Positions 13,901-46,667 of a stretch of DNA of 64,000 bases are shown piece after piece (positions within the stretch are counted from its first letter, which is position 1; each line of letters starts with the position of its first letter). Position numbers and translations under genes: made by a program. The notes below the pieces were generated by a model that saw only the letters and a list, made by a program, of their open reading frames with translations, was not told where the DNA came from and did no database searches. The DNA comes from a virus, in the IMG/VR virus record IMGVR_UViG_3300029101_000001; one strand, given 5' to 3'.

Positions 13901-15441
13901 TTAACATCCCAATAGTCAGAATTTCTGACCCTTTCCTCTCTTATTTTCTATACTAGTTCTCTAGCTTCTTTAGCATCCTCTTTCTATTCTTTTTCTCTTA
14001 CCTAATCTACAATATTCTATATTTCTTCAGGTAATATCTTTTTTCTTGGCATAATTAAAAGTCTCCTGGGTCAAAACCATCCACAGCTCCAGCTCTAACA
14101 GTAGATTGTTCAGTAAGTTCTTTCTTAACCTAGTCTTCTAGTGTTATGAGTTCTTCATGAACTTTGTGAAGGGTAGCCATTTCCTTCATTACTTTTTCAG
14201 CCTGGAATACTGGCTTGCCGTTATTATCACGCTCATTTAAATCTACAATAGTTTCGAAATAATCAATAAACTAGTCTGCAGCTCTTTTAGCTGCTTCTAG
14301 TAATTTTATTGACTTGTTTGAATCTTGTAACGCTCTGTATTTCCTACAAGCTTCTCTAAATATAGGGTCATTAAATTCTGACTCTGTCAATCCAGAATCA
14401 CTAATAGCTTCGTCATGTCGTTCATGTTCCGAATACTAACTGTACGGACTTTTCCAGTCTATAGCTAAATAAATGTAAGATAGTTCTCTAGTAGCTCTAT
14501 CCTTTTCTGCAGATTTATCCCTCTAGATTAAAGCCTTAAATTCCTTAACTAGCAATATCTCTGGTTCATTTATTTCTAGCTATTTAGTTAAAGTGTTATA
14601 GTTAAATACATTCATAATCATTAATCATTATCATACACATTAGATAATCTTATTATTTCTTTTTCATTTTGGAACCGCACTTATTGACTTTCATTTTTGA
14701 GCCACAAGCGTCTTTCTTAGCATATTGTTTTCTGTCAGGAACCCATTTTCCTCCCTGGAAATTACCCTTATGTCCTTTATTGGCCATAGTTTCCTAATCA
14801 TTGTATTTATTGATTGATATAGAATCTCTTGAGGCTTCGTCTCTAGCAGATTTCATATCTTTCTTATACTAAGCTCTTCCAGCCTTAAATTTATCAACTT
14901 CATTAGCTTTCTTAGTAACTTTAGTTCCTTTTTGTGCTTTCTGGCAAGCTTTACAGATTCTACCGCCTTGCTTAAAATATACAAGCTCTTCTCCTTCTGG
15001 ACATACTCCTTTTAGCTTCTTATAATACTCAAGCTTAGCTCCAAGCCTAGCCATTACTCCTCCTTGCATTTTCTGCATAAATTCCTGATACTTAGCTTTA
15101 ATGCCGTCTTCACCTAATTGTTCAGCATAAGCTTGTAAATCCTATTCAGATTGTACTTGTATTCCCTACGCAGCGGCATCTTGTATTAGATATGCCATAA
15201 ATGCTTTTTGTAATTCTTCCTAGTTAGCCATTACTCTTCTACTTTAATTAAATCCTTAGTATTAAACACTGCTTCCTACATAAGTCCGGAATCAGTAAAC
15301 CATCTACATCTTAATCCTCGTAATCCTTGGTTATCTTTAAATAAAGCTGCTTCTCTTCTTAGAACAAGCATAACTGGAGAATGCATTACTTTACACTACC
15401 GTAAAGTAACACAATCCCCAGGCTTAAAATAAACTTTTTCA

Positions 15442-19905: not shown

Positions 19906-19922
19906 AACTATTAATTTTGGCG

Positions 19923-19994
19923 TTGCCCTACTAGGATTCGAACCCAGACTAAATGATTTAGAGTCATCTGTGCTGACCATTACACCATAGGGCA
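19923..19994 (-). tRNA. amber suppressor tRNA, anticodon CUA, probably charged with Gln
   Basis: Minus-strand cloverleaf: ugcccua ug gugu aauggucagcac a gauga cuCUAaa ucauu uagu cuggg uucgaau ccuag uagggca a. Acceptor, D-arm, variable loop and T-arm nearly identical to the phage tRNA-Gln(UUG) at 34204. Confidence 0.85.
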
Positions 19995-20852: not shown

Positions 20853-21299
20853 ATGACACTCGAAGAATTGAAAGACCAGAACGTAAGCGCAGTAGAAAGA
20901 GCTAAGGCAGTAGTATCAGCATTGGGACTGAAAGGTGACGAACGCTCAGTTGTTGTCGGCTTGTCAAAGGGCGATAAGTTTAAGTTGGTAGCAATGAACA
21001 AGGTAGATTTACCTGCAAATGCCAACCAACCAAACCAAAGCAACTTTACACCGATTACATTTAGCACTGACACAGGTGCAACCATTGGTGCAAAACACTT
21101 TGCGGGCGTAGAAATCGACGACGATGCTCCGGCAATCGGTTCAACTCCGTTGGAAAATGCCGCTTTCCTTGTTTATTGCATTGACCACAATGTAACATTT
21201 AAGGTAGACAAAAAGGTAACGGAAGACATCGAAGCTACCACCGACCGCCAAGCCTACAAGAAAAATACTTACAAGCTGGTAGTGGAAGACTATGATTAA
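20853..21299 (+). CDS. hypothetical protein, first plus-strand gene
   Basis: Track ORF 148 aa, TAA stop. Confidence 0.5.
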   Translation: MTLEELKDQNVSAVERAKAVVSALGLKGDERSVVVGLSKGDKFKLVAMNKVDLPANANQPNQSNFTPITFSTDTGATIGAKHFAGVEIDDDAPAIGSTPLENAAFLVYCIDHNVTFKVDKKVTEDIEATTDRQAYKKNTYKLVVEDYD

Positions 21300-21350
21300 A
21301 AGATTGGGGAGAAATCCCCTTTCTTTTACATACAAATAATCTTTGTAGAA

Positions 21351-21545
21351 ATGGACATAAGAAAAAAGTTTAAGACTATAAAGTGTTTGTATAATTGGGG
21401 CATAATCTATGACCCAAAGACTAATGAAAAGTTAAATTTCAAATCCAAACGTGTTTATTGCGTAACTTCTTGGGCTTGGATTATGACCTATCAAAAGTCA
21501 GAAGAAGATATTCCTGAGATAATTAGAATAGTCTTTGTAGATTAA
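21351..21545 (+). CDS. hypothetical small protein
   Basis: Track ORF. Confidence 0.3.
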   Translation: MDIRKKFKTIKCLYNWGIIYDPKTNEKLNFKSKRVYCVTSWAWIMTYQKSEEDIPEIIRIVFVD

Positions 21546-22278
21546 CTCTAAGGTACTATGAGTTTTAAATAAAGTGCCCACATGAACCCCATCATCGGAA
21601 CGTTGGTTAACGGGGAAAACAACATCACAACAAATCAAATCAAAGTTTTTGTTTAGTTTTAGGATTATATCTGGCAGCTTGGAAAGACAAGCAAAATCTT
21701 TATACCTATCTGCTAATAGGTTTAGTGTTCAACGCGAAAATTCGGTAAAGGAAGGAGAGAAATTGTCCACTAAAAAGACCCTCAATTTCCGGACTTTTTC
21801 CGATTTTCAAAAAATCCGCCAGAGTAGGAGTTATATAGCTCACACTCTCTATGGACATTATTTAGTATTTAGCCTATAAAAGGCAACAAAAAGCGAGGCT
21901 ACGCAGAAGAGCCTAACACCAAAAATAACTGCTACAAATTCTATGTGCATATTCGCAAACTTGAGCACTATAGGATTTAGGTTGAGCTATAAGGATTGGT
22001 CACTTATAGCAATATTATGAGTACTGCTGATATGTCAGTGACCGTACATATCACATATAAAATATGTTATACAATTATGTTAGAAGTTGCCAGGTCTAAG
22101 AAGCCTGATTAAAATCTCTAGATAGTAAGAGAGAACCTCATAAGGGTTCATTTTCCATCTCGAACCTATTCGCAAGTTTATAGACTAGCTATCTATAAAT
22201 TTAGTGAACGTTGATAACGTCCTCAGCATGGAAAACTGAGAAATAATCTCCTATCTTATTCTAGATATAGATAGGATT

Positions 22279-22345
22279 TCCCTACTGGTATAATGGATTG
22301 CGTCTCCCGCTGGAGAAGATTCTGGTTCAAGTCCAGAGTAGGGAA
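22279..22345 (+). ncRNA. tRNA-like element with a truncated anticodon arm (4-nt loop)
   Basis: Acceptor ucccuac/guaggga, D-arm gguauaaugg, T-arm ucugg uucaagu ccaga. Anticodon arm ucucc-cgcu-ggaga has no 7-nt loop. Confidence 0.35.
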
Positions 22346-22609
22346 CTACTAAGTTGCAATATTCATATTATTGTCGGACCATAATGGGTATGCCCTGAGA
22401 CTATGCAGTTGTTGTGAAATAACTCAAAGTATTGTGGCACAGGAAGGTCTAGTCGTTACCCTTTGCTTATTTTATTAATTTCCATTTTGACTAAAAGGCA
22501 CAGCGGTGCCTTTACTCTCAAGATAAGAACAACCTTTACGTGGTTTGAGAGATAAGTAAGCTGCTTTAGCTGAAACTAATAGTTCTAGTAACAATTAAAA
22601 ATATTTACC

Positions 22610-22759
22610 ATGAAAGAGAAAATGAAACGTATTGAGGAGTACACTAAAGCAATGAGAGAGCTACTAGATAGACTCTTGGAGCAAAACCCAGATTCAGAGA
22701 ATGAAATCTATGATGAAATATGGGGAGCTTATGTTGCAGGCATGAAGGTGTTCTTATAA
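22610..22759 (+). CDS. hypothetical small protein (49 aa)
   Basis: ATG to TAA, no TAG in frame, read by eye. Confidence 0.3.
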   Translation: MKEKMKRIEEYTKAMRELLDRLLEQNPDSENEIYDEIWGAYVAGMKVFL

Positions 22760-22898
22760 CTCCTATTCTAGCTGAGAATTAAAACTAGCTGGCTTTTATT
22801 ACTCTTTGTAAAAGCTCAAAAATTAAAAAGAGAAATCTAGAACGGTAAGCCCGGCTCTCTTCATCCTTTAACTGATTTAGAAGTAAAACAGAAATTAG

Positions 22899-23411
22899 TT
22901 GGCAGCCTGGAATAGACAGGCATTTTTAACTAAAAATTATAGAAAAAATGAACACGTAGAAATTAACAGCTTAAAGAAGTATTCAGAGTTTACAACAACA
23001 TTTCGTATTCCATTCAAAAAGGCAAATGATGTAGAAGCTAAATGCTATACGCCTATGGATGTAATTGACGCTTGGAAAGAAGTATGCATACAGGCGTTAG
23101 AAATGAGAATGGAGGCGTGTCTGTCAATGTTGCTCAAGAACAGAGATCGAGTGATAGAATCCGACGAAGAATGTGTTGTTTTCAGAAAGCCCAACGGACA
23201 TCTTCATTTCTTCAACCACTCCAGCTTTCAGGCTATGGAAGCTCTAGTAGAAGCTCTTAAAGAAGAGGGTCCAATAGTACTCGACTCCCTCCAAGTAGAC
23301 CAATTATTGAAGGCTTTGTACTGGATTCCAGAAAAGTTGAAAAAAGATCATCAAGAATTTGGATTTGGAGAATTAATAAGCTGTTTGACCTGCCTAGCCT
23401 ACAAAGCTTAG
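22899..23411 (+). CDS. hypothetical protein
   Basis: Track ORF 170 aa. Confidence 0.5.
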   Translation: MAAWNRQAFLTKNYRKNEHVEINSLKKYSEFTTTFRIPFKKANDVEAKCYTPMDVIDAWKEVCIQALEMRMEACLSMLLKNRDRVIESDEECVVFRKPNGHLHFFNHSSFQAMEALVEALKEEGPIVLDSLQVDQLLKALYWIPEKLKKDHQEFGFGELISCLTCLAYKA

Positions 23412-23576
23412 GCTGAATAAAAAACTCAATAACTTCCCAAGACATTGAGGGCACCAGTTTCTTATGAATAAATACTCTGAAAAGCCTATATATGGGCAGG
23501 ACAGAGCCTCGAAAGTCTTAGACCAGAGAGATAGTAAGTTTTAGGTGTAAAATGCGATTAATAAAAGAAAAAGATT

Positions 23577-24170
23577 ATGGAACAGTATTTAGATGCAAAA
23601 ATTAAGAGATTTACTCAAAAGCAATTATTCAAGAAAATAACTAAAGTTAAAACCATGCTAGGTTTGGGAGGATTACATCCTGAGAAATACCTAGAAGTTG
23701 TACCCGAACATAAAAATTGTGTCCTAGTTGACTTCAATCCAGCAGATGCATTAGTAAGAAGAAATTCTCTTATTGGAGAGTTTGATTTACTTACTAATTC
23801 TCCAGCGGAGAGAAGTCCGCTTAACTTCGTTGATTGTGATTTCTGCAAGTCCATTATAAATAATGGAGCAGATTTACTATATATTTATACGAAGATGCAG
23901 CTTTCTCCAATTAGAAACAAGTATATCACATTTACTTTTAGTTGTAGAACTGCGGGAGACGAGAGAACGATTGAGTGGTTGGCAAAGAATTTCCCAGAAC
24001 TTGATATTCCAAGAAATTACGTGTTTATAAATGATACAAGATGTAAGGAGATTGGATATCGTCAATATGTTAAACGTATGTATGATCCAACTAGAGACAG
24101 ATTCTTGGACATATACAAATACAGAGATTCTGGAGATAACATGATTACCGGACTAATTAAAATCCTCTGA
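23577..24170 (+). CDS. hypothetical protein
   Basis: Track ORF 197 aa. Confidence 0.5.
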   Translation: MEQYLDAKIKRFTQKQLFKKITKVKTMLGLGGLHPEKYLEVVPEHKNCVLVDFNPADALVRRNSLIGEFDLLTNSPAERSPLNFVDCDFCKSIINNGADLLYIYTKMQLSPIRNKYITFTFSCRTAGDERTIEWLAKNFPELDIPRNYVFINDTRCKEIGYRQYVKRMYDPTRDRFLDIYKYRDSGDNMITGLIKIL

Positions 24171-24235
24171 TGAGTCTTTGAAAATTAAGACGAAACTACC
24201 CATCTTTGGGTAGTCAGGATTAAAAAGAAAAAGAA

Positions 24236-24436
24236 ATGAGAAAGTACAACAGATTAAATTGCGATTCAACTGTTCGCGCAAGATTTATAGATACTTGGGG
24301 ACGAGTAATAACTTTAGTCGGAACCCATGCCTTCGAATATGCCATTCACATAGAAGGAGTAAGAACAGTTACTGAAACATTCGAGAATGGAACATTAGCA
24401 AGAAAAAGATTTAACGAATTAAAAAAGAAACCATGA
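24236..24436 (+). CDS. hypothetical small protein
   Basis: Track ORF, overlapping stop-start with next gene. Confidence 0.4.
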   Translation: MRKYNRLNCDSTVRARFIDTWGRVITLVGTHAFEYAIHIEGVRTVTETFENGTLARKRFNELKKKP

Positions 24437-24666
24437 GAAAGAGATTTAAGATGAGCAGAATTGCTTCATCAGACAACTATGAGTTGTCAAGAAAGATTCA
24501 CGCAATGTACCTCCAAAGATTTCACGAGGAGAACATAGAAGTGATTACAGAGATTTCATCTACATTAGTAATTAAAGAACAAAAGTATATTCGGGTATTT
24601 GGGAAGTTAATTCCTGTTTCCGAAGAAGAATTGAGAATACATAACACTTTAATATCTGTGAAATGA
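24433..24666 (+). CDS. hypothetical small protein
   Basis: Track ORF. Confidence 0.4.
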   Translation: MRKRFKMSRIASSDNYELSRKIHAMYLQRFHEENIEVITEISSTLVIKEQKYIRVFGKLIPVSEEELRIHNTLISVK

Positions 24667-24905
24667 TGGAAGATTTGTTAACAATAGTAAGATGGGCAAT
24701 AACATTGCCTGTTTGGTTGCTAGAACATATACTTAAGGCTATGACCTTAATAGTTCTGGTATTGGTAATCATCGTCATGGCGGTATTATATCCGCTATTT
24801 CGGTCTATCTGGCGTAAGACAGGACAGTCTGTGATTTTTAAGTATGCAACAAAATGGAGAGGAAACTATCCGCTAACCAAAAAAGTATTTGACTTATGGC
24901 AATGA
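24663..24905 (+). CDS. small membrane protein
   Basis: Track ORF with hydrophobic core LVLVIIVMAVLYPLF. Confidence 0.4.
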   Translation: MMEDLLTIVRWAITLPVWLLEHILKAMTLIVLVLVIIVMAVLYPLFRSIWRKTGQSVIFKYATKWRGNYPLTKKVFDLWQ

Positions 24906-25182
24906 TGAGAAGAATTACCGAAATAAACGGTGAGATAATTGTGGTAGAAACTATGATTATCGTAGGAGAGATAGTATTGATTACAGTACAAATAAATGGA
25001 GAACTAGTTCGCTATGAAATATTATCTGTTAGACAGTTATGGGAAGGTCGTTAGGGCCTTCTCAAGCTGGTCTGAGGCTAACAAATTTCGTATAACTAGA
25101 AATAGACCAGATTGGAGGATTGTATGACATACATCGTTGTATTTATAATATTAATCATCATGTGGAAAATGATTGAAGACGA

Positions 25183-26142
25183 ATGAAAACAGTATTAACC
25201 CATACAGGAAAAATCTATGTTGATACAGAACATAGACTAGAGTTCTTAACTGTAGGAGACTATGGTAAGGAGAACAACATCAAGGCTGATTTCTTAGGTC
25301 TAACTAAGGAAATCAATGGAGTAGAGAATACAGCAGTAGACCTAAGCAAGAAATGGGTAGCAACTATTTCAACTCAGAAAGGCTGTCCTATGCATTGTAA
25401 ATTCTGTGATGTTCCCAAGTTTGGATTCTATGGAAATGCTTCTATAGAAGATATGGATAGACAAATCCGAACTATTATAGAAGGCGAAAGTGTCAGAGAA
25501 ACAGACAGGTTTAATGTGCACTTTGCTAGAATGGGAGAACCAACATGGAATGATAATGTATTAGCATTTGGACTTGCTCTCAGAGGTGTGGTTAAGTCTG
25601 CAGGATTAACAGCTAAAACTGTTCATCCAGTAGTTTCCACGATGCTTCCGAAAGCAAATAATAAGCTTAGAAACTTCTTACAGGTTTGGTGTAGCATAAA
25701 AAATGAGTTCTACAATGGAGAAGCAGGCTTACAGTTTTCAATCAATTCTACAGACGATGAACAGAGAAACGAGCTGTTTGATTCTAAGAGTTTGTCACTA
25801 GCACAAATTTCTCAGTTGGCTAATGAGTTACCAATGCCAGTAGGCAGAAAGTATACTCTAAATTTTCCAGTAACCTCACAAACTATTCTCGATGCGAAGG
25901 AATTGTCAAAGCTATTTGATAGGGAGAAATTTATTGTTAAAATCACTCCTATACATGAAACGGCTTCTGCTATAGAGAATGGTTTCCAGGTAACTGGATA
26001 CTCTGATTATGACGTTTACCGTCGCTTTGAACAACCTTTATTGAAAGAAGGTTGGGATGTTATAGTGTTTGTTCCATCTAAGGAGGAAGATTCTGACCGA
26101 ATTACTTGTGGGAACGCACTAATCTCTGAAGAGAAGATTTAA
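25183..26142 (+). CDS. radical SAM enzyme (specific function unknown)
   Basis: CPMHCKFC matches the CxxxCxxC radical-SAM cluster motif. 319 aa. Confidence 0.55.
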   Translation: MKTVLTHTGKIYVDTEHRLEFLTVGDYGKENNIKADFLGLTKEINGVENTAVDLSKKWVATISTQKGCPMHCKFCDVPKFGFYGNASIEDMDRQIRTIIEGESVRETDRFNVHFARMGEPTWNDNVLAFGLALRGVVKSAGLTAKTVHPVVSTMLPKANNKLRNFLQVWCSIKNEFYNGEAGLQFSINSTDDEQRNELFDSKSLSLAQISQLANELPMPVGRKYTLNFPVTSQTILDAKELSKLFDREKFIVKITPIHETASAIENGFQVTGYSDYDVYRRFEQPLLKEGWDVIVFVPSKEEDSDRITCGNALISEEKI

Positions 26143-26194
26143 CAATTCTTAACTAAGGAGAACGTAGTTCGCTGTATATAATAGCGAACACGAT

Positions 26195-26268
26195 GTCCCG
26201 TTAGCTCAGTTGGATAGAGCAACAGCCTTCTAAGCTGTGGGTCGTAGGTTCGAATCCTACACGGGATA
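26195..26268 (+). tRNA. tRNA-Arg (UCU)
   Basis: Cloverleaf by eye: gucccgu ... acagc cuUCUaa gcugu ... guagg uucgaau ccuac acgggau a. Confidence 0.8.
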
Positions 26269-26290
26269 CTAACAATTAAAAAACAAAACT

Positions 26291-26503
26291 ATGATACTAT
26301 TTATTTATATCTTAGGAGTATTAATGGCATGGTTTCTAATGTATTTAGAAGAGAAATATCGTTATAAGAAGGAAAAGACCTATAAATTTACTTTAGGTAA
26401 TCTATTGTCAAGCATATTCTTTTCTTTATTTTCATGGATTGTAGTAGCAGCGTGCCTAATATCCTTGTCGGATAAAATAATCTTAGTAGATAAATCCGAC
26501 TAA
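26291..26503 (+). CDS. small membrane protein
   Basis: Track ORF, two hydrophobic segments. Confidence 0.35.
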   Translation: MILFIYILGVLMAWFLMYLEEKYRYKKEKTYKFTLGNLLSSIFFSLFSWIVVAACLISLSDKIILVDKSD

Positions 26504-26508
26504 TTAAT

Positions 26509-26582
26509 GACTCCGTAGCTCAGTTGGTTAGAGCACGATACTTTTAATATCGGGGTCCCGAGTTCGAATCTCGGCGGAGTCA
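26509..26582 (+). tRNA. tRNA-Lys (UUU)
   Basis: gacuccg ua gcuc aguugguua gagc a cgaua cuUUUaa uaucg ... ccgag uucgaau cucgg cggaguc a. Confidence 0.85.
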
Positions 26583-26636
26583 CTCTTTTTCTTTTATTCC
26601 GCTAGTAAACATTTGTTGTGAAACACGTGTTTGCAT

Positions 26637-26709
26637 CTGGGTATAGTCGAGTTGGTAAGATGCTACATTTGGGATGTAGAGACCGCAGGTTCGAGTCCTG
26701 CTATCCAGA
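26637..26709 (+). tRNA. tRNA-Pro (UGG)
   Basis: Acceptor cugggua/uauccag, anticodon arm cuaca uuUGGga uguag, T-arm gcagg uucgagu ccugc. Confidence 0.7.
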
Positions 26710-26914
26710 CAAGAAGTAATCAACATTCACTATTAGTACAGCAATTAGGACTGTAGGGTGCCTTTTAGATGAATCCCTGATTACTCCGATTAACAGAGGC
26801 AATGTCCTTAATATCGTTACCACGCACTGCGGCTATTAGCTGTTAGATGATTTGGGGTGCCAAATGGAAGAACGGTAACAGCTATGTTAATTAGAACGAA
26901 TCTGTTAATTGTAT

Positions 26915-26997
26915 GGGAGTGCGCCAACGTTGGAGAGTTGGGCTTGACTGTAAATCAAGTGCCTATGGCTTAGAAGGTTCGAATCCTTCCACTCCCA
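26915..26997 (+). tRNA. tRNA-Tyr (GUA), long variable arm
   Basis: gggagug/cacuccc acceptor, cuuga cuGUAaa ucaag, variable arm ugccuauggcuuagaagg. Confidence 0.8.
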
Positions 26998-27090
26998 CAA
27001 ATTTAATGAATATGTTAATAGGATTTTTAGTATTTATTACTCTAGAAATAGCTATAATAGCTACTATAGGGTTTACTTATTTTCACGAAG

Positions 27091-27462
27091 ATGATAAGAA
27101 TTTCAAGAATTATCGCAAAGGAAAGAATAGCTGATTTGTTAGACTTAAATTTCGTGTCTAAGATAGAATTAAGACAGGGAAAACAAGGATTTAATAATCC
27201 TGCTATTTGTAGAGTAGAAATCTATTTACTACTTGAAAACGACAAAGAGTACTTTAATTCCAAAATGGCTGATATTATGTCATGGGCACAAAAGAACAAA
27301 TGTAACATTGCTTTTACTACTGCTAGTATGGCTCTCAAAGACGGATTTATTAAAGAATCTGCTTTTGATGACTTTAACTATCCAGTTCCTAAAAAGTATA
27401 AAGCATTATGTGATATTTATTCAGCAAGTTACTTTAATCTATTTAATAGAAGAAAATTATGA
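27091..27462 (+). CDS. hypothetical protein
   Basis: Track ORF 123 aa. Confidence 0.45.
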   Translation: MIRISRIIAKERIADLLDLNFVSKIELRQGKQGFNNPAICRVEIYLLLENDKEYFNSKMADIMSWAQKNKCNIAFTTASMALKDGFIKESAFDDFNYPVPKKYKALCDIYSASYFNLFNRRKL

Positions 27463-27680
27463 AAGAATTAAATAATTATATTCTATATTGTTCTAACTTA
27501 GATGATAATGAGTATAATCTATTGTGGGAATACTATAATGAACAGTCCTTTCTTAATAAAATTAAAGAAGATTTTAGTTATTTATTTTTTACGTTATTTA
27601 TATGGAAGATAAGTACGAAGGATTATCTGACGAAGAGCTTAAAGAGATTTTCGAAGATATGGAAGCAGACTATTGGATAG
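27459..27680 (+). CDS. hypothetical small protein
   Basis: Track ORF. Confidence 0.3.
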   Translation: MKELNNYILYCSNLDDNEYNLLWEYYNEQSFLNKIKEDFSYLFFTLFIWKISTKDYLTKSLKRFSKIWKQTIG

Positions 27681-27759
27681 ACTACTATCAGTCTCTTTGC
27701 GAATGAAACGCAGCAGTTGGCTTTCGGAATCTCTGTCTTAACAAAATGAGTCCGTAATT

Positions 27760-27843
27760 GGGATTGTAACCGGTAATTGGTAGCCGCGCAGACTGTAAAT
27801 CTGCTCTCTTTTGAGACTGGAGGTTCGAGTCCTCCCAATCCCA
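27760..27843 (+). tRNA. second tRNA-Tyr-like (GUA), long variable arm, atypical D-arm
   Basis: gggauug/caauccc acceptor, gcaga cuGUAaa ucugc, T-arm ggagg uucgagu ccucc. Confidence 0.65.
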
Positions 27844-27864
27844 CACATTTTAATTAATTAGATT

Positions 27865-28056
27865 ATGACAGAAGAAGCAATTAGAGCTATGTCTGAAGGA
27901 AAGAAAGTAAGGCATAGATACTTTAGTAAAGACGAATGGGTAACTATAAATTCCAGCGGACTATATGAGTTCGAAGATGGTGTAAAAGTTGACTCATCGT
28001 TATTTTGGATGGACAGACAGGATTCCTACTGGAATGATGGATGGAGCTTAGTTTAA
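27865..28056 (+). CDS. hypothetical small protein
   Basis: Track ORF. Confidence 0.35.
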   Translation: MTEEAIRAMSEGKKVRHRYFSKDEWVTINSSGLYEFEDGVKVDSSLFWMDRQDSYWNDGWSLV

Positions 28057-28083
28057 CTTTAAATAAGAATAAAATGACAACGT

Positions 28084-28326
28084 ATGAGTACGGAAAAGGA
28101 TACTTGCCAGAAATCTGGTACTAGTGTAATATTCCAAAAAGAAATTACGCAGTGTAGGGAATGTCCTCATTGTAGAATCGCTCCTGACCCAGACCCTGAT
28201 GACTGGTTCAATGACGATGATGAAAAAGCGCTTTGTAAAGAAGCAGGAAATAAACTAATTGAGGGAATGTTAAGACCTTACGAAAGGGTATTAATTCCAG
28301 ATTGGTGTCCTTTAAAGACCAACTAG
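28084..28326 (+). CDS. small Cys-rich (zinc-ribbon-like) protein; ends at TAG
   Basis: CQKSG...CRECPHCR...CKEAG...WCPLK. Stop is TAG, so read-through would add 12 aa. Confidence 0.4.
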   Translation: MSTEKDTCQKSGTSVIFQKEITQCRECPHCRIAPDPDPDDWFNDDDEKALCKEAGNKLIEGMLRPYERVLIPDWCPLKTN

Positions 28327-28410
28327 ACTCAAGTACCCAATTCCATACACCGAAGAGGTTAAAATGGGGAAGTGGTTCTAAGTATGGATAGCTAGTAGTT
28401 GGTCTTATAT

Positions 28411-28484
28411 GGTGTTATTAGTTCAGTTGGCAGAACGCTACATTGTGACTGTAGAGGTCAGCGGTTCGAATCCGCTATAACACC
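28411..28484 (+). tRNA. tRNA-His (GUG) with encoded G-1
   Basis: G-1 pairs with C73. cuaca uuGUGac uguag, T-arm agcgg uucgaau ccgcu. Confidence 0.8.
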
Positions 28485-28696
28485 CATAGTATAATTCCCA
28501 GAACGATCAATAAATTGGCAGATGTACAGCGTTATCTCATAACAAGACATAGTGTAGAGTCTTAGGAAAGTCTGAATAAGTGAAGAATCGGAACTCTTAT
28601 TAATTATATTATGAAAGATAGAAAATTATTTTGGTTTTGTGTAATATCTATAATTTACATAATTACCTATTGGTGTTTTATTAAAAATTACAACGA

Positions 28697-29257
28697 ATGA
28701 AAAAGACAATTGAAATCGAATGTCCTGATGGTTACAAACCAGTTTACAATGCAGAGACTGGAAAAGTAGAAATTGTGTCTGAAGACATTACTGCAAGGGT
28801 ACAGACTTACGAAGATGCTTGTAAAATCATGAGTAGAGATGTCTATGGTAATGTTCCTGCAAATTTCTCTGTTGATGCTTTACGCAAATTGCACGTCATT
28901 CTCGATGCCTTAAACGAAGGACACAAGTTCAATCTTCTCACTGGAACAGTTTGGTATCCTTGGGTTCGGTTCTTTAGAATGAAATCAGTGCCGAAAGATG
29001 CAGAGGTTATTGGACATTTTAGCTATCAGGGCGAGAAATTCGCACTGGTGGGCAGCAGCGCGAATCTTGGCGGCTTTGCGGGTCTCGGCTGTTTCAATTC
29101 TAGCTCTGACGTCGGCCATGCCGATTCCGGTGTCGGGATGCTTGCGTGCAAATCTGAGGAGATTGCTGAATACGTATCAACTCAGTTTGGCAAACTCGTA
29201 TTCGAAGCTTGTTTTGCCAGACACTTCAATGTAGGAGAATTTAAATGGCTAGACTAA
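28697..29257 (+). CDS. DGR target protein 2 (remote, trans target), small cytoplasmic-type protein with VR2
   Basis: Track ORF 186 aa. Residues LVGSSANLGGFAGLGCFNSSSDVGHADSGVGM are encoded by VR2. Confidence 0.7.
   Translation: MKKTIEIECPDGYKPVYNAETGKVEIVSEDITARVQTYEDACKIMSRDVYGNVPANFSVDALRKLHVILDALNEGHKFNLLTGTVWYPWVRFFRMKSVPKDAEVIGHFSYQGEKFALVGSSANLGGFAGLGCFNSSSDVGHADSGVGMLACKSEEIAEYVSTQFGKLVFEACFARHFNVGEFKWLD
29045..29137 (+). repeat. DGR variable repeat VR2
   Basis: 93-nt alignment to TR: 25 differences, all at TR adenines, no non-A mismatch. All changes fall in codon positions 1-2 of TR AAY codons. Confidence 0.85.
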
Positions 29258-29505
29258 TTGTAATTCTACTATTGCTTGCCTCATGCACACACGATAAGGT
29301 AGTAAATCACAATCAAACTGATACCATAAAGTATGAAGAGATATATTGCCCAAATTGTGATGGAATTGGTCAAGTAAAGATGTCAGCTGGGTCTAGAGTT
29401 GTATTAGGCATCCTTACACTAGGTCCAGGTGCTCTTTGTGATACCGAATCGTGTAGTATGTGTAATGGAACAGGAGTAGTTAAAAGAAGAGTACTAAACA
29501 AATGA
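29245..29505 (+). CDS. lipoprotein with two DnaJ-type CxxCxGxG zinc-finger repeats
   Basis: Lipobox LLLLASC. CPNCDGIG and CSMCNGTG. Confidence 0.5.
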   Translation: MARLIVILLLLASCTHDKVVNHNQTDTIKYEEIYCPNCDGIGQVKMSAGSRVVLGILTLGPGALCDTESCSMCNGTGVVKRRVLNK

Positions 29506-29981
29506 AGAAATTTTTAATGCTTATTGTGGCTATGCTCTTTATGAGTGTAGCCTCATTCTCTCAAATAACCATATCTCAAGAAGATTATGATAGGTTGCCT
29601 GGAGAGACAAGAACCCAAATCGAGAAAATAACTACCGAGAAAGCTATAAAAGGAGAAATCAAAGAAGTATCTGAATATGCAAGTCTCGGAAAGGAGATTG
29701 GAGTTGCAGTAAATGAGACACTAAAAGCAGTTGAAGATTCGGCTATAAGAATATCTGAATCCAATCTAGGACAAACAGCGATAACTATTGTAGTATGGAA
29801 ATTACTATATAAAGAGATAGCTGGAGTCGTAATAGGTATACTACTGCTAGGAATATCTCTATTTTTACTAATAACTGGAAGAGGAAAACTATCTAAAGAC
29901 AATGAAGATGCTGGCGGATGGATAAGTGTAGTCGGTGGCGCAGTATTCTTTATTTCTTCTATGATTTGTGTATTTGGCTGA
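29502..29981 (+). CDS. secreted/membrane protein (signal peptide plus C-terminal TM)
   Basis: MKKFLMLIVAMLFMSVASFSQ signal. Hydrophobic C-terminal segment. Confidence 0.5.
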   Translation: MKKFLMLIVAMLFMSVASFSQITISQEDYDRLPGETRTQIEKITTEKAIKGEIKEVSEYASLGKEIGVAVNETLKAVEDSAIRISESNLGQTAITIVVWKLLYKEIAGVVIGILLLGISLFLLITGRGKLSKDNEDAGGWISVVGGAVFFISSMICVFG

Positions 29982-30077
29982 GGAGCAGTCCAGGCTATAG
30001 GCTGGTGTATTCTAGCTATATTCTGTGTATTATTGCTTCTTGGATGTATGTTAGGCTAACCAATTAGTTAGCCCTTT

Positions 30078-30166
30078 GGAAGGGTGGCAGAGTCAGGTTT
30101 AATGCAACGGTCTTGAAAACCGTCGGGCGGTAAAACGTCCCCAGGGTTCGAATCCCTGTCCTTCCG
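30078..30166 (+). tRNA. tRNA-Ser (UGA), class II
   Basis: acggu cuUGAaa accgu. Long variable arm cgggcgguaaaacgucccc. T-arm caggg uucgaau cccug. Confidence 0.8.
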
Positions 30167-30175
30167 CAATTAACT

Positions 30176-30248
30176 ATAGGATTGGTGTTAACGGTTAGCA
30201 CGTCGGTCTCCAAAACCGAAGGTAAGGGTTCGAATCCTTTATCCTATG
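30176..30248 (+). tRNA. tRNA-Trp (CCA)
   Basis: auaggau/auccuau acceptor, ucggu cuCCAaa accga. Confidence 0.8.
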
Positions 30249-30491
30249 CAAATATCAATAACTAAAAAACTTATGAAGAGAATTAGATTAATTTGTATGA
30301 TGGCTGTTGTAGCAATAGTTACGGCAGTCTGTTGTTCGTTTACTTCTAGGGAAGACCGAAATCATTTTTCGGTTGAAAAGGTATATACCGACCCTAATAG
30401 TCACATGAATGTCTATAGAGTCTCCGTTCCTGGGAGAATGTATTACGTACTTCATAATACGACTCAAGGAGGGTTATGTAAATTACAATGA
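30246..30491 (+). CDS. putative lipoprotein
   Basis: MMAVVAIVTAVCCSF lipobox-like. Confidence 0.4.
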   Translation: MQISITKKLMKRIRLICMMAVVAIVTAVCCSFTSREDRNHFSVEKVYTDPNSHMNVYRVSVPGRMYYVLHNTTQGGLCKLQ

Positions 30492-31015
30492 GCGAAACTT
30501 ATTATCTCTTAGCAGCCATTTCGTATGGCATTTTTATTGTTCAGTTCATACTCTCTTGGTTTGGTGGCGACACTGACTTGGATGTAGATTTAGATGGAGA
30601 ATTGGACATGGATGTGAGTGATATTGTCTCTTTTAAAGGACTAGTACATTTTGTAATGGGAGCAAGTGGATGGCTTTGTATTAAGCATTCAGTTTCCCAT
30701 TCTATAGAATGGTACGATTATTTAATCGCATTAATATGCGGTATTCTTTTTGTGGTTATACTTTACTACTTATATAAACTTTGTTTAAAACTCCAACATC
30801 AAGTTATTCCTGAAAAGGGTGAAGCCTTAATCGGGAGAATTGGAACAATCACTATCCCTAATGATATTTCTGGTGGTAGTTCTGTTATCTTAGTTGAGAT
30901 AAATGGAATGCTTCAAGAATTGTCAGCTTATGCTGAAGAAGAGCATAAGACGTATAAAAACGGGGACAAAGTGAGAATTTCAAAATTTGAGAATGGAAAG
31001 TATTATTTTAACTAA
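30488..31015 (+). CDS. NfeD-like membrane protein (partner of SPFH/flotillin)
   Basis: N-terminal TM segments plus C-terminal OB-fold-like GEALIGRIGTITIPNDISGGSSVILVEINGMLQELSAY...GDKVRISKFENG. Immediately upstream of the flotillin gene. Confidence 0.6.
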   Translation: MSETYYLLAAISYGIFIVQFILSWFGGDTDLDVDLDGELDMDVSDIVSFKGLVHFVMGASGWLCIKHSVSHSIEWYDYLIALICGILFVVILYYLYKLCLKLQHQVIPEKGEALIGRIGTITIPNDISGGSSVILVEINGMLQELSAYAEEEHKTYKNGDKVRISKFENGKYYFN

Positions 31016-31030
31016 AAAGAATTTTTAAAG

Positions 31031-40717: not shown

Positions 40718-40954
40718 CTCCACTATCAAAAGACGAGTTCTTAGGGAAGTGTCTAGAGAGTGCAGAAAGAGGAATATGATGGACAAGAAAGGTGAAATTC
40801 CAAATGATATTAAAGACATATGGGAAGCGATTAAAGTATTAACAAAGAGAAATAAACAATTTGCTGTTAGATATGCATCAATGTGATTATTGTTGTTGGT
40901 ATAATCCTGCCAGTGGGTGCTGTGATTGTCCATACGTAATGAGACGGAAAGCGT

Positions 40955-41152
40955 GTGAGAAGGCTCGTAAACAGAAAGAAGAAAATGAAAAGCCTAGAAA
41001 GTTATAGCATATTTACTAAGCCTAAACTATCTAATCCTGTATCATGGGAGGATATGAAAGAATTTAATACCCATATGAAGGAAGTAGTTAGAGACTATAA
41101 GATTAGGCAAGCTAAAGCTAGAGAAAGCGCTAAGAAAGTAATTATTAAGTAA
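40955..41152 (+). CDS. hypothetical small basic protein
   Basis: Track ORF. Confidence 0.35.
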   Translation: MRRLVNRKKKMKSLESYSIFTKPKLSNPVSWEDMKEFNTHMKEVVRDYKIRQAKARESAKKVIIK

Positions 41153-41406
41153 ATACTAACCTGGCAAGGTAAAAATCCAGTCGGGGTCTGTTAGCATTTA
41201 TGCTAATAAGTCGAAGCCAGTCCCTGCGTAGTTATAATAGGCAAGCTGAACTTGAGAATTGTTAAACGGATGGTTGCCGTTAAAAGATATATAGTTACAA
41301 ACTTATGTATCCAGAATATAACTAATTAAAGACTTATCTGGTGATGTTAGGTTATGGAATCCTAACAGTGGAAATTTATGAGTTATGTCACCAATTAAAA
41401 AGAAAA

Positions 41407-41479
41407 TCTCAAACATGGGCCGTTAGCTCAAATGGCTAGAGCGCTGGTTTTGCACACCGGAAGATAGGGTTCGAGTCCC
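41407..41479 (+). tRNA. tRNA-Ala (UGC) with G3:U70, imperfect base of acceptor stem
   Basis: cuggu uuUGCac accgg. G3-U70 present. Three mismatches at acceptor pairs 5-7. Confidence 0.55.
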
Positions 41480-41507
41480 TGCGTGTCCACAACAAAATTA
41501 AATAATT

Positions 41508-41693
41508 ATGAAAGTATACGTAGTCGTAGTGAACCATCATCCAGCTAATGCGCCTCAGAACTATAAAACTGAGTGTCAGATATTTCTGGATAAAAAGGAA
41601 GCCGAAGGCTATAAGAAAGCCAAGGAAGAAGAATATCCCATACGTTGGGGAGGTGAATACAATCATTGTGAAATATTTAAAAAGCATTTGTAA
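41508..41693 (+). CDS. hypothetical small protein
   Basis: Track ORF. Confidence 0.35.
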   Translation: MKVYVVVVNHHPANAPQNYKTECQIFLDKKEAEGYKKAKEEEYPIRWGGEYNHCEIFKKHL

Positions 41694-41696
41694 TAT

Positions 41697-41769
41697 CGCG
41701 GGGTGTTAGCAGAGGTAGCTAGTCAGGCTCATAACCTGAAGGTCGAGGGTTCGAGTCCCTCTCCCGCTA
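41697..41769 (+). tRNA. tRNA-Met/Ile2 (CAU), second copy, C1-U72 mismatch
   Basis: ucagg cuCAUaa ccuga. T-arm gaggg uucgagu cccuc. Confidence 0.65.
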
Positions 41770-41802
41770 CTAGTAATTAATTAGATACTTAATTTTTAGA
41801 TT

Positions 41803-42228
41803 ATGAATTACAAAAATCTTACTAAAGAAACTCTCCCCGTAGAGTTTCAAAACAGAATCGAACGATTTAATCGTCTATTCTCAGCTGCAACCGACCATTC
41901 CTTTGAAGAGGATGACTTGTTTGAGTATGAAATGTTATGTATAAAGCAGGCTCTTTCATTCTCGGAATTTTTCCAAGATTTCGGTGATGAACAGTATCAA
42001 GACTTCTTGAAGCAATATGAGAGCTTATACGACTTAGTTGATGCTATTAAGGACAAACTTCAGTTCTTTGATAACGGACATACTGGAAACTCTATGAGCA
42101 TGAGTTGGCTTTTATTCCGAACTTATCGAGAAAGACCGGAATTAGTTCCGTATATGCACGGATGCTTGGCTCAGCTCGTTGGGGATGAAGGCTATTATGA
42201 TGACCGTTCAGATGTTCCAGAACTATGA
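41803..42228 (+). CDS. hypothetical protein
   Basis: Track ORF 141 aa. Confidence 0.5.
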   Translation: MNYKNLTKETLPVEFQNRIERFNRLFSAATDHSFEEDDLFEYEMLCIKQALSFSEFFQDFGDEQYQDFLKQYESLYDLVDAIKDKLQFFDNGHTGNSMSMSWLLFRTYRERPELVPYMHGCLAQLVGDEGYYDDRSDVPEL

Positions 42229-42521
42229 GCGTAATACAACAGGTCTACTTAGCTGAATCAGGCAGTTCTATTTACATAAAGGGGATTAAACCTGATAAAG
42301 AGAATGAATATTCTGGTGAGATTACTCTAAACGGTAATCCCACTAGATTAGAGAGAAAAGAACGTTACCATATAAGTAACGGTATGCTTGTTACAGATAG
42401 TTATCATATCCCTATGGAGTTCATTATTAGCTTCTTGCAGGCTAACGGATGTGTTCAAGAAGGAGAAGATGGCAAGTCGTATGTTGTTTTAAGAGAAGTA
42501 GAATTTAAATTGAATAACTAA
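42225..42521 (+). CDS. hypothetical protein
   Basis: Track ORF. Confidence 0.45.
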   Translation: MSVIQQVYLAESGSSIYIKGIKPDKENEYSGEITLNGNPTRLERKERYHISNGMLVTDSYHIPMEFIISFLQANGCVQEGEDGKSYVVLREVEFKLNN

Positions 42522-43102
42522 TGTTATCAGTATTATATAGCGAATATGAGCTGTGGGGTTGTCCTAATTGTGGGTGCGATTCCGTTATAAGTAGTGGAGT
42601 TTCTGGAGGAGGTCTAACATCTGGAACTTGTAGACATTGCAAGTTAAAATTTGAAGTTAGAAGCGAAAATCCAATGGGAATAGTCAAATATGGCTGCCAT
42701 CCAGAAAATCCCTCAGACCCGAAATCTAAATGGGTTATGGAAAGCGCAATCAGAATTGAACATCCTAGAAAAGGTATTCCTGCATGGAATTGGGAACCAG
42801 TTGACGAACGTCCAGAAGAAGGAGAATATTGGAACTCTCGTGGTCCTGGCTATCCAGATGTTTCTGGCTTTGTAAAGACCAAAGCTGCTGGTGAGCGTAT
42901 TCTAGCTATGGTGCATGAAGTGTTAGGAACTGACAAGTGTAAGACTTATCTAGATTTCAGACCAAGTGAACCAACGTGGATTCAATTCAAATTTCATAAA
43001 GACGAGTTTGATATAGAGAAACTAGATTCTCTTACTCGTGATAGTGGAATAATTACTAAAGACATAATCAAACAATGTATTTATGGCAAAAGTAGTAAAT
43101 AG
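42521..43102 (+). CDS. hypothetical protein with N-terminal zinc ribbon
   Basis: CPNCGC...CRHC. Confidence 0.5.
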   Translation: MLSVLYSEYELWGCPNCGCDSVISSGVSGGGLTSGTCRHCKLKFEVRSENPMGIVKYGCHPENPSDPKSKWVMESAIRIEHPRKGIPAWNWEPVDERPEEGEYWNSRGPGYPDVSGFVKTKAAGERILAMVHEVLGTDKCKTYLDFRPSEPTWIQFKFHKDEFDIEKLDSLTRDSGIITKDIIKQCIYGKSSK

Positions 43103-43334
43103 GGCCTCTGATATAATCCAACTTAAAGACCTAAAGGATGGGGAATTTGCAGAAGTGATAGAATGGTTTGAGGATGGAACAGTATCTAACGGAGATATAA
43201 TTCAAAGATGTGGACTTGCACTATTTATATTAGGAAGTTGTTCTTACTATCCTGAGATATTTAGTAAGGGTGCTAGAGACTATACTAATACTAAGTTACG
43301 GACACTACCTGAGGGTACAACTATAATGTTATAA
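43083..43334 (+). CDS. hypothetical protein
   Basis: Track ORF. Confidence 0.4.
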   Translation: MAKVVNRASDIIQLKDLKDGEFAEVIEWFEDGTVSNGDIIQRCGLALFILGSCSYYPEIFSKGARDYTNTKLRTLPEGTTIML

Positions 43335-43374
43335 TTTCTTTTTCCAGTTTTCTAATTAAAGATAAACTGGGTAT

Positions 43375-43936
43375 GGGCCTACTTGGATTTGACAGGCGAT
43401 TACAAATTATAAGGACGTGTAGAGCGCAATCTCTTTAAACGAAGAAAAAACAATAAATGCTACTTATAGCGAAGTAAGAATGGCAGCCTAAGCTGCTGGC
43501 TTGTTGGTAAACACTATTAACTAAGTCGGGTTACGGGAGAGACCTAGAAACAGAAGAGGTTGAGTATATTGATATAATGGAGAGCTAGGCTCTAATCCTA
43601 GTAATATGCTCTTAATCAGAACACTCTAAGAGTTAGTAAGACTGAATCTCCTACGTCATAAAACAGATGGAAGATGTGTTCCGTGAGATGTGACGAATCT
43701 CTAAAGTATCATCCCGTTCTCCAACGTAAATGGAGTGGTGGAACGTTGACTTCGGTCAACCCTATAGTTTGGTAGCTTGTAGATAAGCATCTAGAGAAAT
43801 ACTTAGTATGGACTCTTGTAAGACTTATAAAACTACCTAAATGCTAGAACTCCCTAGCTGATATAATAAAAATGAGACGCACGTTATCCTTGTAACGAGG
43901 GTTGTTTGGACACGGGTTCGACTCCCGTTAGGTCCA
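43375..43936 (+). ncRNA. ssrA: tmRNA-like (ssrA-like) RNA, about 560 nt, with tag reading frame 43459-43491 encoding ATYSEVRMAA then TAA
   Basis: 5' GGGCCUACUUGGAUUUGACAGGCG matches the tmRNA 5' consensus GGGGCUGAUUCUGGAUUCGACGGG. 3' end CGAGGGUUGUUUGGACACGGGUUCGACUCCCGUUAGGUCCACA matches the tmRNA T-arm/acceptor, and 43375-81 pairs with 43929-35 over 7 bp. A-rich run precedes a GCU resume codon at nt 85. Confidence 0.6.
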
Positions 43937-43942
43937 CATAAT

Positions 43943-43974
43943 AGGGCTATAGCTCAACTGGTTAGAGCACCACA
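43943..43974 (+). pseudogene. 5' half of a tRNA (acceptor, D-arm, 5' anticodon stem)
   Basis: agggcua ua gcuc aacugguua gagc a ccaca. Complementary 3' half lies at 44623-44657. Confidence 0.4.
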
Positions 43975-43984
43975 TCAATAATAT

Positions 43985-44056
43985 TGGGATGTAGTTTAAC
44001 GGTTAGAACAAGAAACTGATAATTTCTAGACGGCAGTTCAACTCTGTCCTTCCCAA
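43985..44056 (+). tRNA. tRNA-Ile (GAU)
   Basis: ugggaug ua guuu aacgguua gaac a agaaa cuGAUaa uuucu agac ggcag uucaacu cuguc cuuccca a. Confidence 0.7.
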
Positions 44057-44073
44057 CTAATACTGTAAATAAT

Positions 44074-44622
44074 ATGTAGAAAATTTCTGAACAAATCAAA
44101 CAACAAGTAAAAGTTCTTAGAGAAAATGGATATTCTTATGATAAAATATCTGAAGAATTGTCTATTGGAAAAGGTTCTGTTTCTAATATCTGTAAAGAAT
44201 TTGGATTATGCCAAAAGATAGTTGAGCTAACTCCAGAGAAAATTATAGAAGTTTAGAAAATGTATGACGAAATAGGTAACATAAAAGAGGTTGCGAGACT
44301 CTCTGGAATATCCTATAATAGACTTCGAAACGTTATAGTAAGCAAAAAGATAACTCCTAAAACTGGCTACGACAACGTTAAAGAATATAGAAAGCGTACA
44401 AAATAGGAACTAGTCGAGTATAAAGGTGGAAAGTGTTAGATATGCGGCTATAATAGATGTAATGAAGCATTAGACTTTCATCACCTCGACCCAAGCGAGA
44501 AAGATTTCTCATTATCTGGGTAGCACAAACCTATAGAACTTTTAAAGAAAGAGGTAGATAAATGTATACTTCTCTGTTGTAGGTGTCACAGAGAAATTCA
44601 CGCAGGAGTAATTGCGCTATGA
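44074..44622 (+). CDS. HNH homing endonuclease with N-terminal HTH; 5 in-frame TAG codons read as sense
   Basis: By-eye translation ...YKGGKCQ(TAG)ICGYNRCNEALDFHHLDPSEKDFSLSGQ(TAG)HKPIELLKKEVDKCILLCCRCHREIHAG then TGA. Frame is consistent at both ends. Confidence 0.65.
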
Positions 44623-44657
44623 TGTGGAGGTTATCAGTTCAAGTCTGATTAGCCCTA
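44623..44657 (+). pseudogene. 3' half of a tRNA (3' anticodon stem, T-arm, acceptor), begins right after the HNH stop
   Basis: ugugg aggu uaucag uucaagu cugau uagcccu a. Pairs with the 5' half at 43943 in both acceptor and anticodon stems. Confidence 0.4.
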
Positions 44658-44734
44658 CAAAACCGCCAGCTCACGCGGTATATAAGAAAGGATTGCCGGA
44701 CTCGCAGGTGTAACGAGATAAATACCTGCATTTT

Positions 44735-44807
44735 CGAGGCTGTGGTGTAATGGCTTGCATATCACACTGTCACTGTGAAGGTTGGGGTTCGAATCCCCCA
44801 GTCTCGG
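44735..44807 (+). tRNA. tRNA-Asp (GUC), G73
   Basis: ucaca cuGUCac uguga. T-arm ugggg uucgaau ccccc. Exact acceptor/D boundary ambiguous by 1 nt. Confidence 0.65.
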
Positions 44808-44814
44808 CATTTAT

Positions 44815-44887
44815 TCCCCTGTAGTTTAGTTGGTTAGAACACGTGATTTGTAATCTCGAGACCTCGGTTCGAATCCGAGTGGGGGAT
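44815..44887 (+). tRNA. tRNA-Thr (UGU)
   Basis: ucccug/ugggga acceptor with two GU pairs. Loop uuUGUaa. T-arm cucgg uucgaau ccgag. Confidence 0.7.
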
Positions 44888-44914
44888 CTTAACCATTAAA
44901 TTAGATTAATTTTT

Positions 44915-45589: not shown

Positions 45590-45592
45590 GAT

Positions 45593-45664
45593 AGCGCCAT
45601 CATCTAATGGTTAGGATTCAGGCTTTTCACGCCTGCCATACGGGTTCGAATCCCGTTGGCGTTA
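45593..45664 (+). tRNA. tRNA-Glu (UUC)
   Basis: caggc uuUUCac gccug. T-arm acggg uucgaau cccgu. Confidence 0.75.
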
Positions 45665-45721
45665 CTATGTACCCCAGCAGCGGAAGTTGTTGGGGTATTT
45701 TTTGTTTAATATAATTAATAA

Positions 45722-46042: not shown

Positions 46043-46045
46043 AAA

Positions 46046-46471: not shown

Positions 46472-46667
46472 CGCTATGAAGGAATCTTCTATACTTAAAG
46501 CAATTTCTGACGCTATTGAAGAATACGAGGAAAATCAACAAAGACGAATAGACCTGTTAGAGAGTAAAATTCTGCTATTTGAGAGAGAAAGGGAGGCTTT
46601 TATTCGGCATTTGAGAGAAGGAAACATTCAATTATTAAAGGATTATCTAGGAATTAAAGATGAGTAA
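46443..46667 (+). CDS. hypothetical small protein
   Basis: Track ORF. Confidence 0.35.
   Translation: MGTKSSTMSSAMKESSILKAISDAIEEYEENQQRRIDLLESKILLFEREREAFIRHLREGNIQLLKDYLGIKDE

Follow-up and report, generated by a model that had tools for sequence, protein, structure and literature searches.

The temperate phages Quimbyvirus and LoVEphage, of one lineage ('Quimbyviridae') and about 71-75 kb in size, carry the closest described counterparts of the DGR analysed here. In Quimbyvirus, a second, distal target on the opposite strand lies in a defence-related island (Benler 2021, PMC8008677). Another study, which cites Benler 2021 for LoVEphage, reported four inducible gut prophage species in which a distal second VR is found near counter-defence genes (PMC12629997, Nature 2025). 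These four species are temperate Bacteroidota prophages, and homology to the target family described below is established for LoVEphage only. Distal DGR targets next to counter-defence genes are thus already known from these two studies, and many phage-associated non-adjacent targets within 50 kb have been recorded (Wu 2018, PMC5758913). In zeta crAss-like phages, DGRs have amber codons in the RT and a tail-fibre target with a C-terminal C-type lectin, and most of them have no Avd; only in-cassette tail-fibre targets, and no distal non-structural target, were described in that study (PMC12386605). A global survey, in which remote targets were undetectable, put all annotated VRs in C-type lectin folds (PMC8144416).

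We analysed a 64-kb stretch of the virus record IMGVR_UViG_3300029101_000001 (hereafter the window, 64,000 nucleotides). With the GC-rich core as a probe, an adenine-tolerant search of the two strands detected three repeat copies in the window (TR, VR1 and VR2) and no third VR. This search placed the minus-strand copies at 2078..2168 and 2280..2370, and base-by-base alignment then gave the boundaries used here. The TR (2071..2163, minus strand) is non-coding and A-rich, with target 1 on one side and the RT on the other. VR1 (2271..2362, minus strand) forms the C-terminus of target 1 (2246..4063, minus strand), a 605-aa tail protein with six in-frame TAG codons and a C-type-lectin-like C-terminal domain, which matches PHROG 5302 'tail protein'; VR1 was hypervariable in 20 genomes. 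The DGR reverse transcriptase (653..1927, minus strand; 424 aa, four in-frame TAG codons) matched RVT_1 (1e-19) and contains the motifs IGNYLSQ (GxxxSQ-type) and YADD. VR2 (29045..29137, plus strand) was located by the repeat scan and by alignment to the TR, and corresponds to codons 117-147 of a plus-strand ORF (28697..29257; hereafter the VR2 gene). It is about 27 kb from the RT and on the opposite strand, as the original prediction, made from the letters alone, had proposed.

Alignment of the TR with VR2 over 93 nt showed substitutions at 20 of the 30 TR adenines and no mismatch elsewhere. The prediction had the length and the adenine-only pattern right and put the number of substitutions too high, at 25. 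The probability that 20 random mismatches all land on 30 adenine sites out of 93 is 2.8e-13, and a 40-nt VR2 probe gave no chance match to shuffled sequence. Between the TR and VR1, 23 of 29 TR adenines were substituted over 92 nt, again with no other mismatch. A search for the degenerate VR/TR pattern in related contigs recovered at most three copies in each (TR, VR1 and VR2) and no third target. The system shares with BPP-1 the TR-to-VR adenine mutagenesis, a GxxxSQ-type RT, AAY codons and a fixed 3' difference between TR and VR. Unlike BPP-1, which has Mtd, TR, bRT, Avd and an IMH with a hairpin, it has two targets, one of them 27 kb off, and neither Avd nor the hairpin was found. No ORF is present between target 1, the TR and the RT, and the ORFs downstream of the RT had no Avd-like Pfam match. 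Avd is a non-universal feature, since most zeta crAss-like DGRs do without it (PMC12386605); the amber-containing RT and the lectin-bearing tail target also agree with those systems.

The VR2 gene encodes a protein of 186 aa with no in-frame TAG codon. About 12 hypervariable codons of VR2 (residues 120-145) go back to AAY codons of the TR. In a Kyte-Doolittle hydropathy scan, the N-terminus averaged a hydrophilic -0.84 and the highest 19-aa window reached 1.3; neither a signal peptide nor a membrane segment was revealed, and the protein is predicted to be soluble. It matched phrog_11581 (3e-17), a PHROG of unknown function. Searches of Pfam, NCBIfam, PADLOC and PDB sequences with the protein and its family profile gave no usable match. 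Residues 28-66 (28778..28894) form a second divergent stretch that is not DGR-related and reduces orthologue identity to some 74%, compared with 86-100% for the flanking genes. One database protein, P0002 (98% identical), differs from the window protein solely by S120G, N123L and L124I, which all fall within the first third of the VR at its 5' side (region 29054..29068); all variable residues downstream are equal. This pattern suggests that the conversion tract was partial or that variants have recombined.

Orthologues of the VR2 gene were found in 32 viral contigs, mostly of 105-193 kb, making 33 genomes with the window. The mean entropy across the 33 genomes was 1.32 bits in columns corresponding to TR adenines (n = 30), 0.07 in other VR columns (n = 63) and 0.31 in the rest of the gene. 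At the protein level, the orthologues vary at about 12 positions of the VR and are near-identical over the rest, and the VR2 reading frame is intact in every copy. The TR itself is conserved: 24 related contigs share one and the same 46-nt core, and the 113-nt TR exists in only four variants, which differ at the 5' end. When the VR2 of each of 22 relatives was compared with the TR of the same genome (three copies with indels were set apart), 15-25 differences fell on adenines and at most one on another base. The same picture emerged from a large protein database, where the VR2 protein had 837 matches (clusters at 90% identity) and the best 120 of the 837 were 89-100% identical to it; in 32 aligned proteins from these best 120 (89-98% identical overall), variation was almost confined to the VR codons. 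Because entropy is concentrated in the TR-adenine columns, the TR is conserved and the differences from the own TR are almost only adenines, VR2 is judged active and not a relic. The adenine-site hypervariability that had been proposed for comparison across relatives is thus present in the 33 genomes and in the 120 near-identical database proteins, and the opposite outcome, an invariant VR2 with only VR1 varying, was not observed.

VR1 and VR2 are equally saturated, and their base spectra at the hypervariable sites are alike (A 0.32-0.34, G 0.30-0.32, T 0.22-0.26, C 0.11-0.12). In 17 genomes, VR1 and VR2 agreed at 32.8% of the hypervariable sites within the same genome and at 34.4% between genomes. 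A single cDNA seeding both VRs was rejected, given that the same-genome similarity (0.328) was not above the cross-genome similarity (0.344). Since likeness within a genome is no higher than between genomes, the two VRs are rewritten independently. To judge from these alignments, VR2 is a functional second target, as diversified as VR1 and varying independently of it.

The candidate IMH-like 3' end of VR2 (29131..29139, plus strand) reads TGTCGGGAT, compared with TGTCGGGTT in VR1 and TGTCGAGTT in the TR. The final hypervariable pair is 29129/29130; it is followed by TGTCGGG in both VRs and by TGTCGAG in every TR, and position 29136 is G in all 33 VR2 and all 20 VR1 copies and A in every TR. 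TGTCGGG/TGTCGAG is a plausible, very short (7-9 nt) candidate for an IMH/IMH* distinction. No significant hairpin was found 3' of VR2 (z = -0.31) or VR1 (z = -0.22), and the same was true of LoVEphage. The 3' IMH-like element and hairpin that had been put forward for checking are thus represented by the short TGTCGGG end alone. Because this element is very short and the hairpin was not found, target recognition cannot be mapped on the BPP-1 model. LoVEphage has a clearer IMH, the GC-rich GGCTCTCGCCTTGC in both VRs against ...CCATAC in the TR, and the window element is much shorter than that.

The bases seen in the VR copies vary with the base that follows the TR adenine. Adenines before G appear as G in about 80-100% of the VR2 (33 genomes) and VR1 (20 genomes) copies, while the TRs keep A; in VR2 these sites are 29047, 29050, 29054, 29072, 29080, 29087, 29114 and 29136, and VR1 shows the same at the matching positions. 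Adenines before C become A or G only, and those before A or T become any of the four bases. Three of the adenine-before-G sites are synonymous third-codon positions (L117, V118 and A128). Therefore, selection for glycine codons is insufficient to account for all such sites. In BPP-1, the 3' neighbour is known to influence the errors of the DGR RT (PMC12875486); the error rate of about 30% reported for that system would not yield >90% G.

The window is divided into two blocks that differ in their use of TAG. Genes on the minus strand (1..15231) contain 4-28 in-frame TAG codons each, including the RT (four) and target 1 (six). In the plus-strand block (20853..64000), the VR2 gene and almost all the larger ORFs have none. 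A suppressor tRNA gene with anticodon CTA (19922..19994, minus strand; ARAGORN) lies between the TAG-recoded and the standard-code blocks. TAG recoding of late genes is a pattern described in crAss-like phages (PMC7886860). The RT would be translatable solely once TAG recoding is in force and, because its translation needs the CTA suppressor tRNA reading TAG, it would act late. Genomic position and codon usage point indirectly to an early, non-virion expression of the VR2 gene; the label 'early' in the original prediction is backed by the TAG split, and its description of a 186-aa protein without signal peptide or TAG codons agrees with the ORF, the hydropathy scan and the TAG count. Concerning the identity of the phage, TerL showed 43-44% identity to 'Bacteriophage sp.' records from the human gut that carry no annotation, and 25-28% to Crassvirales terminases, and the exact VR2 protein is also encoded by the 192-kb virus sp. 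ctML55. From TerL, genome size, the tRNA block and the amber recoding, we infer a zeta-like crAss-like phage of about 190 kb.

The genes following the VR2 gene form a conserved arrangement among close relatives. In the window, the end of the VR2 gene is overlapped by a gene for a putative lipoprotein of 86 aa (29245..29505, plus strand), whose lipobox-like N-terminus was recognised by inspection only; it contains two CxxC knuckles and shows weak matches to DnaJ-type and anti-TRAP zinc fingers. This gene is present in 4 of the 33 genomes, the window counted; elsewhere the membrane-protein gene directly follows the VR2 gene. The lipoprotein gene thus looks like a recent insertion. The predicted membrane protein (29502..29981, plus strand), with a signal-like N-terminus and a hydrophobic segment seen by inspection only, has a gene whose start adjoins the VR2 stop codon in some 30 of the 32 close relatives (tblastn synteny). 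Next in order, in 27-28 of the 32, are the genes for a protein labelled NfeD-like (30488..31015, plus strand) and an SPFH/flotillin protein (31031..32989, plus strand; Band_7 2e-17, and 7.7e-41 to the FloT model, under the FloT cutoff). tRNA genes sit between the membrane-protein gene and this pair. Of the neighbours named in the original prediction, the flotillin was confirmed by its Band_7 match, the lipoprotein and the membrane protein were recognised by inspection only, and no database support was found for 'NfeD'.

Homologues of the VR2 protein in three other phage lineages occupy replication, nucleotide-metabolism or counter-defence blocks and never structural modules. One of them (L058, 42% identity) lies among genes for NUDIX, PNKP, RNA ligase and NAMPT, and another (L059, 29% identity) among those for PIF1 helicase, NrdD, dUTPase and ligase. 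The LoVEphage (OY725593) homologue adjoins four methyltransferases, a Lar-like protein and a tRNA ligase. No membrane-protein, NfeD-like or flotillin neighbours were found around the L058, L059 and LoVEphage homologues. Judged by gene order, the tie of the VR2 gene to the membrane/flotillin cluster is clade-specific, and the proposed link to the lipoprotein and flotillin genes holds within the clade of the window and fails around the distant homologues.

The relationship to LoVEphage extends over most of the protein. Its homologue aligned with the window family over 142 columns that reach beyond the VR in either direction (hhalign 99.2%, E = 2.8e-19; tblastn 7e-7). Over 112 nt, the LoVEphage TR (about 41085..41196) and the homologue differ at 11 adenines and nowhere else; between this TR and the tail protein there are 14 differences, again all at adenines. 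The RT (41477..42292) is downstream of the tail protein, and some 15.5 kb separate it from the homologue, which is encoded on the other strand. As annotated, the LoVEphage RT has only 272 aa, and two short ORFs that overlap come after it (41477..43020), an arrangement that fits the frameshifted three-ORF RT of Quimbyvirus (Benler 2021, PMC8008677). As in Quimbyvirus and LoVEphage, a single RT and TR of the window phage serve a target in the tail module and a distal target on the opposite strand, the distal target is among counter-defence-type genes and the TR/VR differences are adenine-only. The window phage is distinct in its size (about 190 kb) and split genetic code, and its RT is one TAG-recoded ORF in place of three frameshifted ORFs. 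Its VR2 neighbours are tRNAs and membrane/flotillin genes, compared with methyltransferases in LoVEphage. With these precedents (PMC5758913, PMC8008677 and PMC12629997) and the LoVEphage homologue, the description of a two-target DGR as unusual was overstated. What the present locus would add is a distal target in a large crAss-like phage, in which the late mutagenic machinery is recoded and the second target is written in the standard code. The distal non-structural target first seen in Quimbyvirus is thus not a one-off, as the same family is hypermutated in an unrelated crAss-like phage. Such distal targets are overlooked by cassette-centred DGR surveys, for example those of zeta crAss-like phages.

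An exhaustive search gathered 249 family clusters at 50% identity, nearly all of them stand-alone proteins of 170-215 aa. The family-wide consensus is LVGGxAxxGxxxGLGxFxxxxxVGxxxxxxGxLxCKSxEIAxHxSKxFGKLIF. Two alternative N-terminal modules, one of a beta-hairpin type and the other of a helical type, occur in the wider family. The multi-repeat relatives P0266 (ankyrin repeats) and P0226 (repetitive, eukaryote-like) were rejected as spurious low-complexity matches. A local rise of GC content over the VR-equivalent region was seen in the L058 and LoVEphage homologues and not in L059; DGR targeting thus seems to be limited to some family members. What is newly delineated here is a sizeable protein family that would be a recurrent target in unrelated phages. 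It is also tractable, with about 250 clusters, some of them apparently DGR-targeted, and with LoVEphage representatives in culture.

The likeness of the VR2 protein to target 1 is confined to the VR module according to BLASTP, and only the 39-residue VR module aligned when the two target families were compared by profile-profile alignment (hhalign 96.4%), in agreement with the earlier claim that the gene is unrelated to target 1 outside the VR. The structural model of the VR2 protein (pLDDT 89.1, pTM 0.82) had no C-type lectin match, while the model of target 1 did match a C-type lectin. Taken together, the alignments and models indicate a VR module common to both targets, with no recognisable C-type lectin in the remainder of the VR2 protein. 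The elements of the model follow the order three strands, VR, two helices and strand, which would be compatible with a permuted lectin. The predicted structure would set the VR2 protein apart from variable proteins with a C-type-lectin fold (Mtd, TvpA, TaqVP and AvpA), as well as from the distal target of Benler et al. (PMC8008677), described as a C-type lectin. A predicted fold that does not fit the C-type-lectin rule would be new. It is conceivable, if doubtful, that this family of about 190 aa represents a third DGR scaffold, in which a lectin-derived 39-aa module is set in a non-lectin or permuted fold and serves phages of very different lineages, inside the cell, as a programmable 'antibody' to host defence proteins that vary, the scaffold being expressed early in the standard code and the mutagenic machinery late.

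The evidence would fit the following order of events. The TR would be transcribed, and the RT would be translated when the CTA suppressor tRNA reads TAG, which would place its action late. The RT would copy the TR RNA into cDNA with errors opposite adenines, and the cDNA would replace VR1 or VR2, homologous sites with the common 3' end TGTCGGG, each independently of the other. Each event at VR2 would randomise about 12 codons (residues 120-145) of the 186-aa protein, whose gene, lying in the standard-code block, is probably expressed early.

A short IMH-like element, the missing hairpin and a remote site might also be expected of a decayed target that was diversified once and in which conversion has since ceased. 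Against this, VR2 has no differences from the TR outside the adenine sites over 93 nt in the window and at most one in each of about 25 relatives. Moreover, among 29 VR2 sequences on backbones that are nearly identical, 28 occur only once, saturation is the same as in VR1 and the frame is intact in all copies. This explanation is already contradicted by the present data and we regard it as extremely improbable. For an active VR2, three roles of the protein were considered, among which an intracellular binder in phage-host conflict ranks as the most likely, a virion-associated binder next and a function tied to the membrane/flotillin genes third. The encoded protein could be an accessory receptor-binding or decoration protein of the virion, so that VR1 and VR2 would both tune adsorption. 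In phages, the great majority of DGR targets are tail or receptor-binding proteins (PMC8144416), cassettes with two targets that are both putative receptor binders are known (PMC10743442), and the VR module of the protein is homologous to that of the tail protein and is written from the same TR. However, the VR2 gene and the structural genes are 27 kb apart and on different strands, and the VR2 gene has no in-frame TAG codon where every structural gene nearby has 4-28. Its homologues in the three other lineages are never found in structural modules, and Pfam-type searches recognised no virion-attachment domain. A role in the virion is therefore unlikely.

The conserved gene order raises a further possibility, namely that the VR2 protein, the membrane protein, the NfeD-like protein and the flotillin constitute a membrane-associated module for superinfection exclusion or membrane remodelling, in which the variable face would read a variable component of the envelope or of an incoming phage from the cytoplasmic side. 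The VR2 gene abuts the membrane-protein gene in nearly all the close relatives, the NfeD-like and flotillin genes come next in most of them, and the flotillin is an SPFH-domain protein. Against such a module, these neighbours are absent beside the L058, L059 and LoVEphage homologues, tRNA genes part the membrane protein from the NfeD-like/flotillin pair, and the VR2 protein has no membrane anchor and no PADLOC match. We consider this possibility less likely again than a role in the virion.

On balance, VR2 is a working second target, and the most likely role of its protein is that of a hypervariable binder which acts inside the cell in the conflict between phage and host, for example by recognising or blocking variable host defence or other host proteins; it is probably not a receptor-binding protein of the virion. 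The data show the repeat anatomy, the hypervariability at adenine sites across genomes, the independence of the two VRs, the family membership and the genomic context, from which the expression timing, cytoplasmic location, binding function and ligand of the protein are inferred. The gene neighbourhoods of the family are non-structural and rich in counter-defence genes, and the protein has no hydrophobic segment. The binding of host or defence factors, suggested in the original prediction and already a published hypothesis, may be the function of the VR2 protein; published parallels to the system are PMC8008677 and PMC12629997. STAND NTPase 'antigen sensors' (PMC10907252) and cyanobacterial regulators (PMC7517822) offer an analogy, as the diversified proteins there are intracellular conflict or signalling proteins and not surface adhesins; those targets are cellular proteins of large size and several domains, the VR domain being a C-type lectin, whereas the VR2 protein is a single-domain phage protein of 186 aa. 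Two points argue against an intracellular binder. The same TR programmes a tail protein, so that the chemistry of the VR suits surface receptor binding, and the membrane-protein genes directly after the VR2 gene could indicate an envelope-related role. What a phage gains by hypermutating a protein that probably never enters the virion is a question that thereby becomes testable.

The window encodes 28 tRNA genes according to ARAGORN, including one with a two-base anticodon call (22279..22346, plus strand) and a tRNA-Tyr with anticodon ATA (39406..39488, plus strand). The standard-code block also encodes a radical-SAM protein with weak RlmN/Cfr-like matches (25183..26142, plus strand) and a nicotinamide phosphoribosyltransferase (57667..59217, plus strand; NAPRTase 3e-32 and NAMPT_N). 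A NAMPT gene is likewise located near the L058 homologue.
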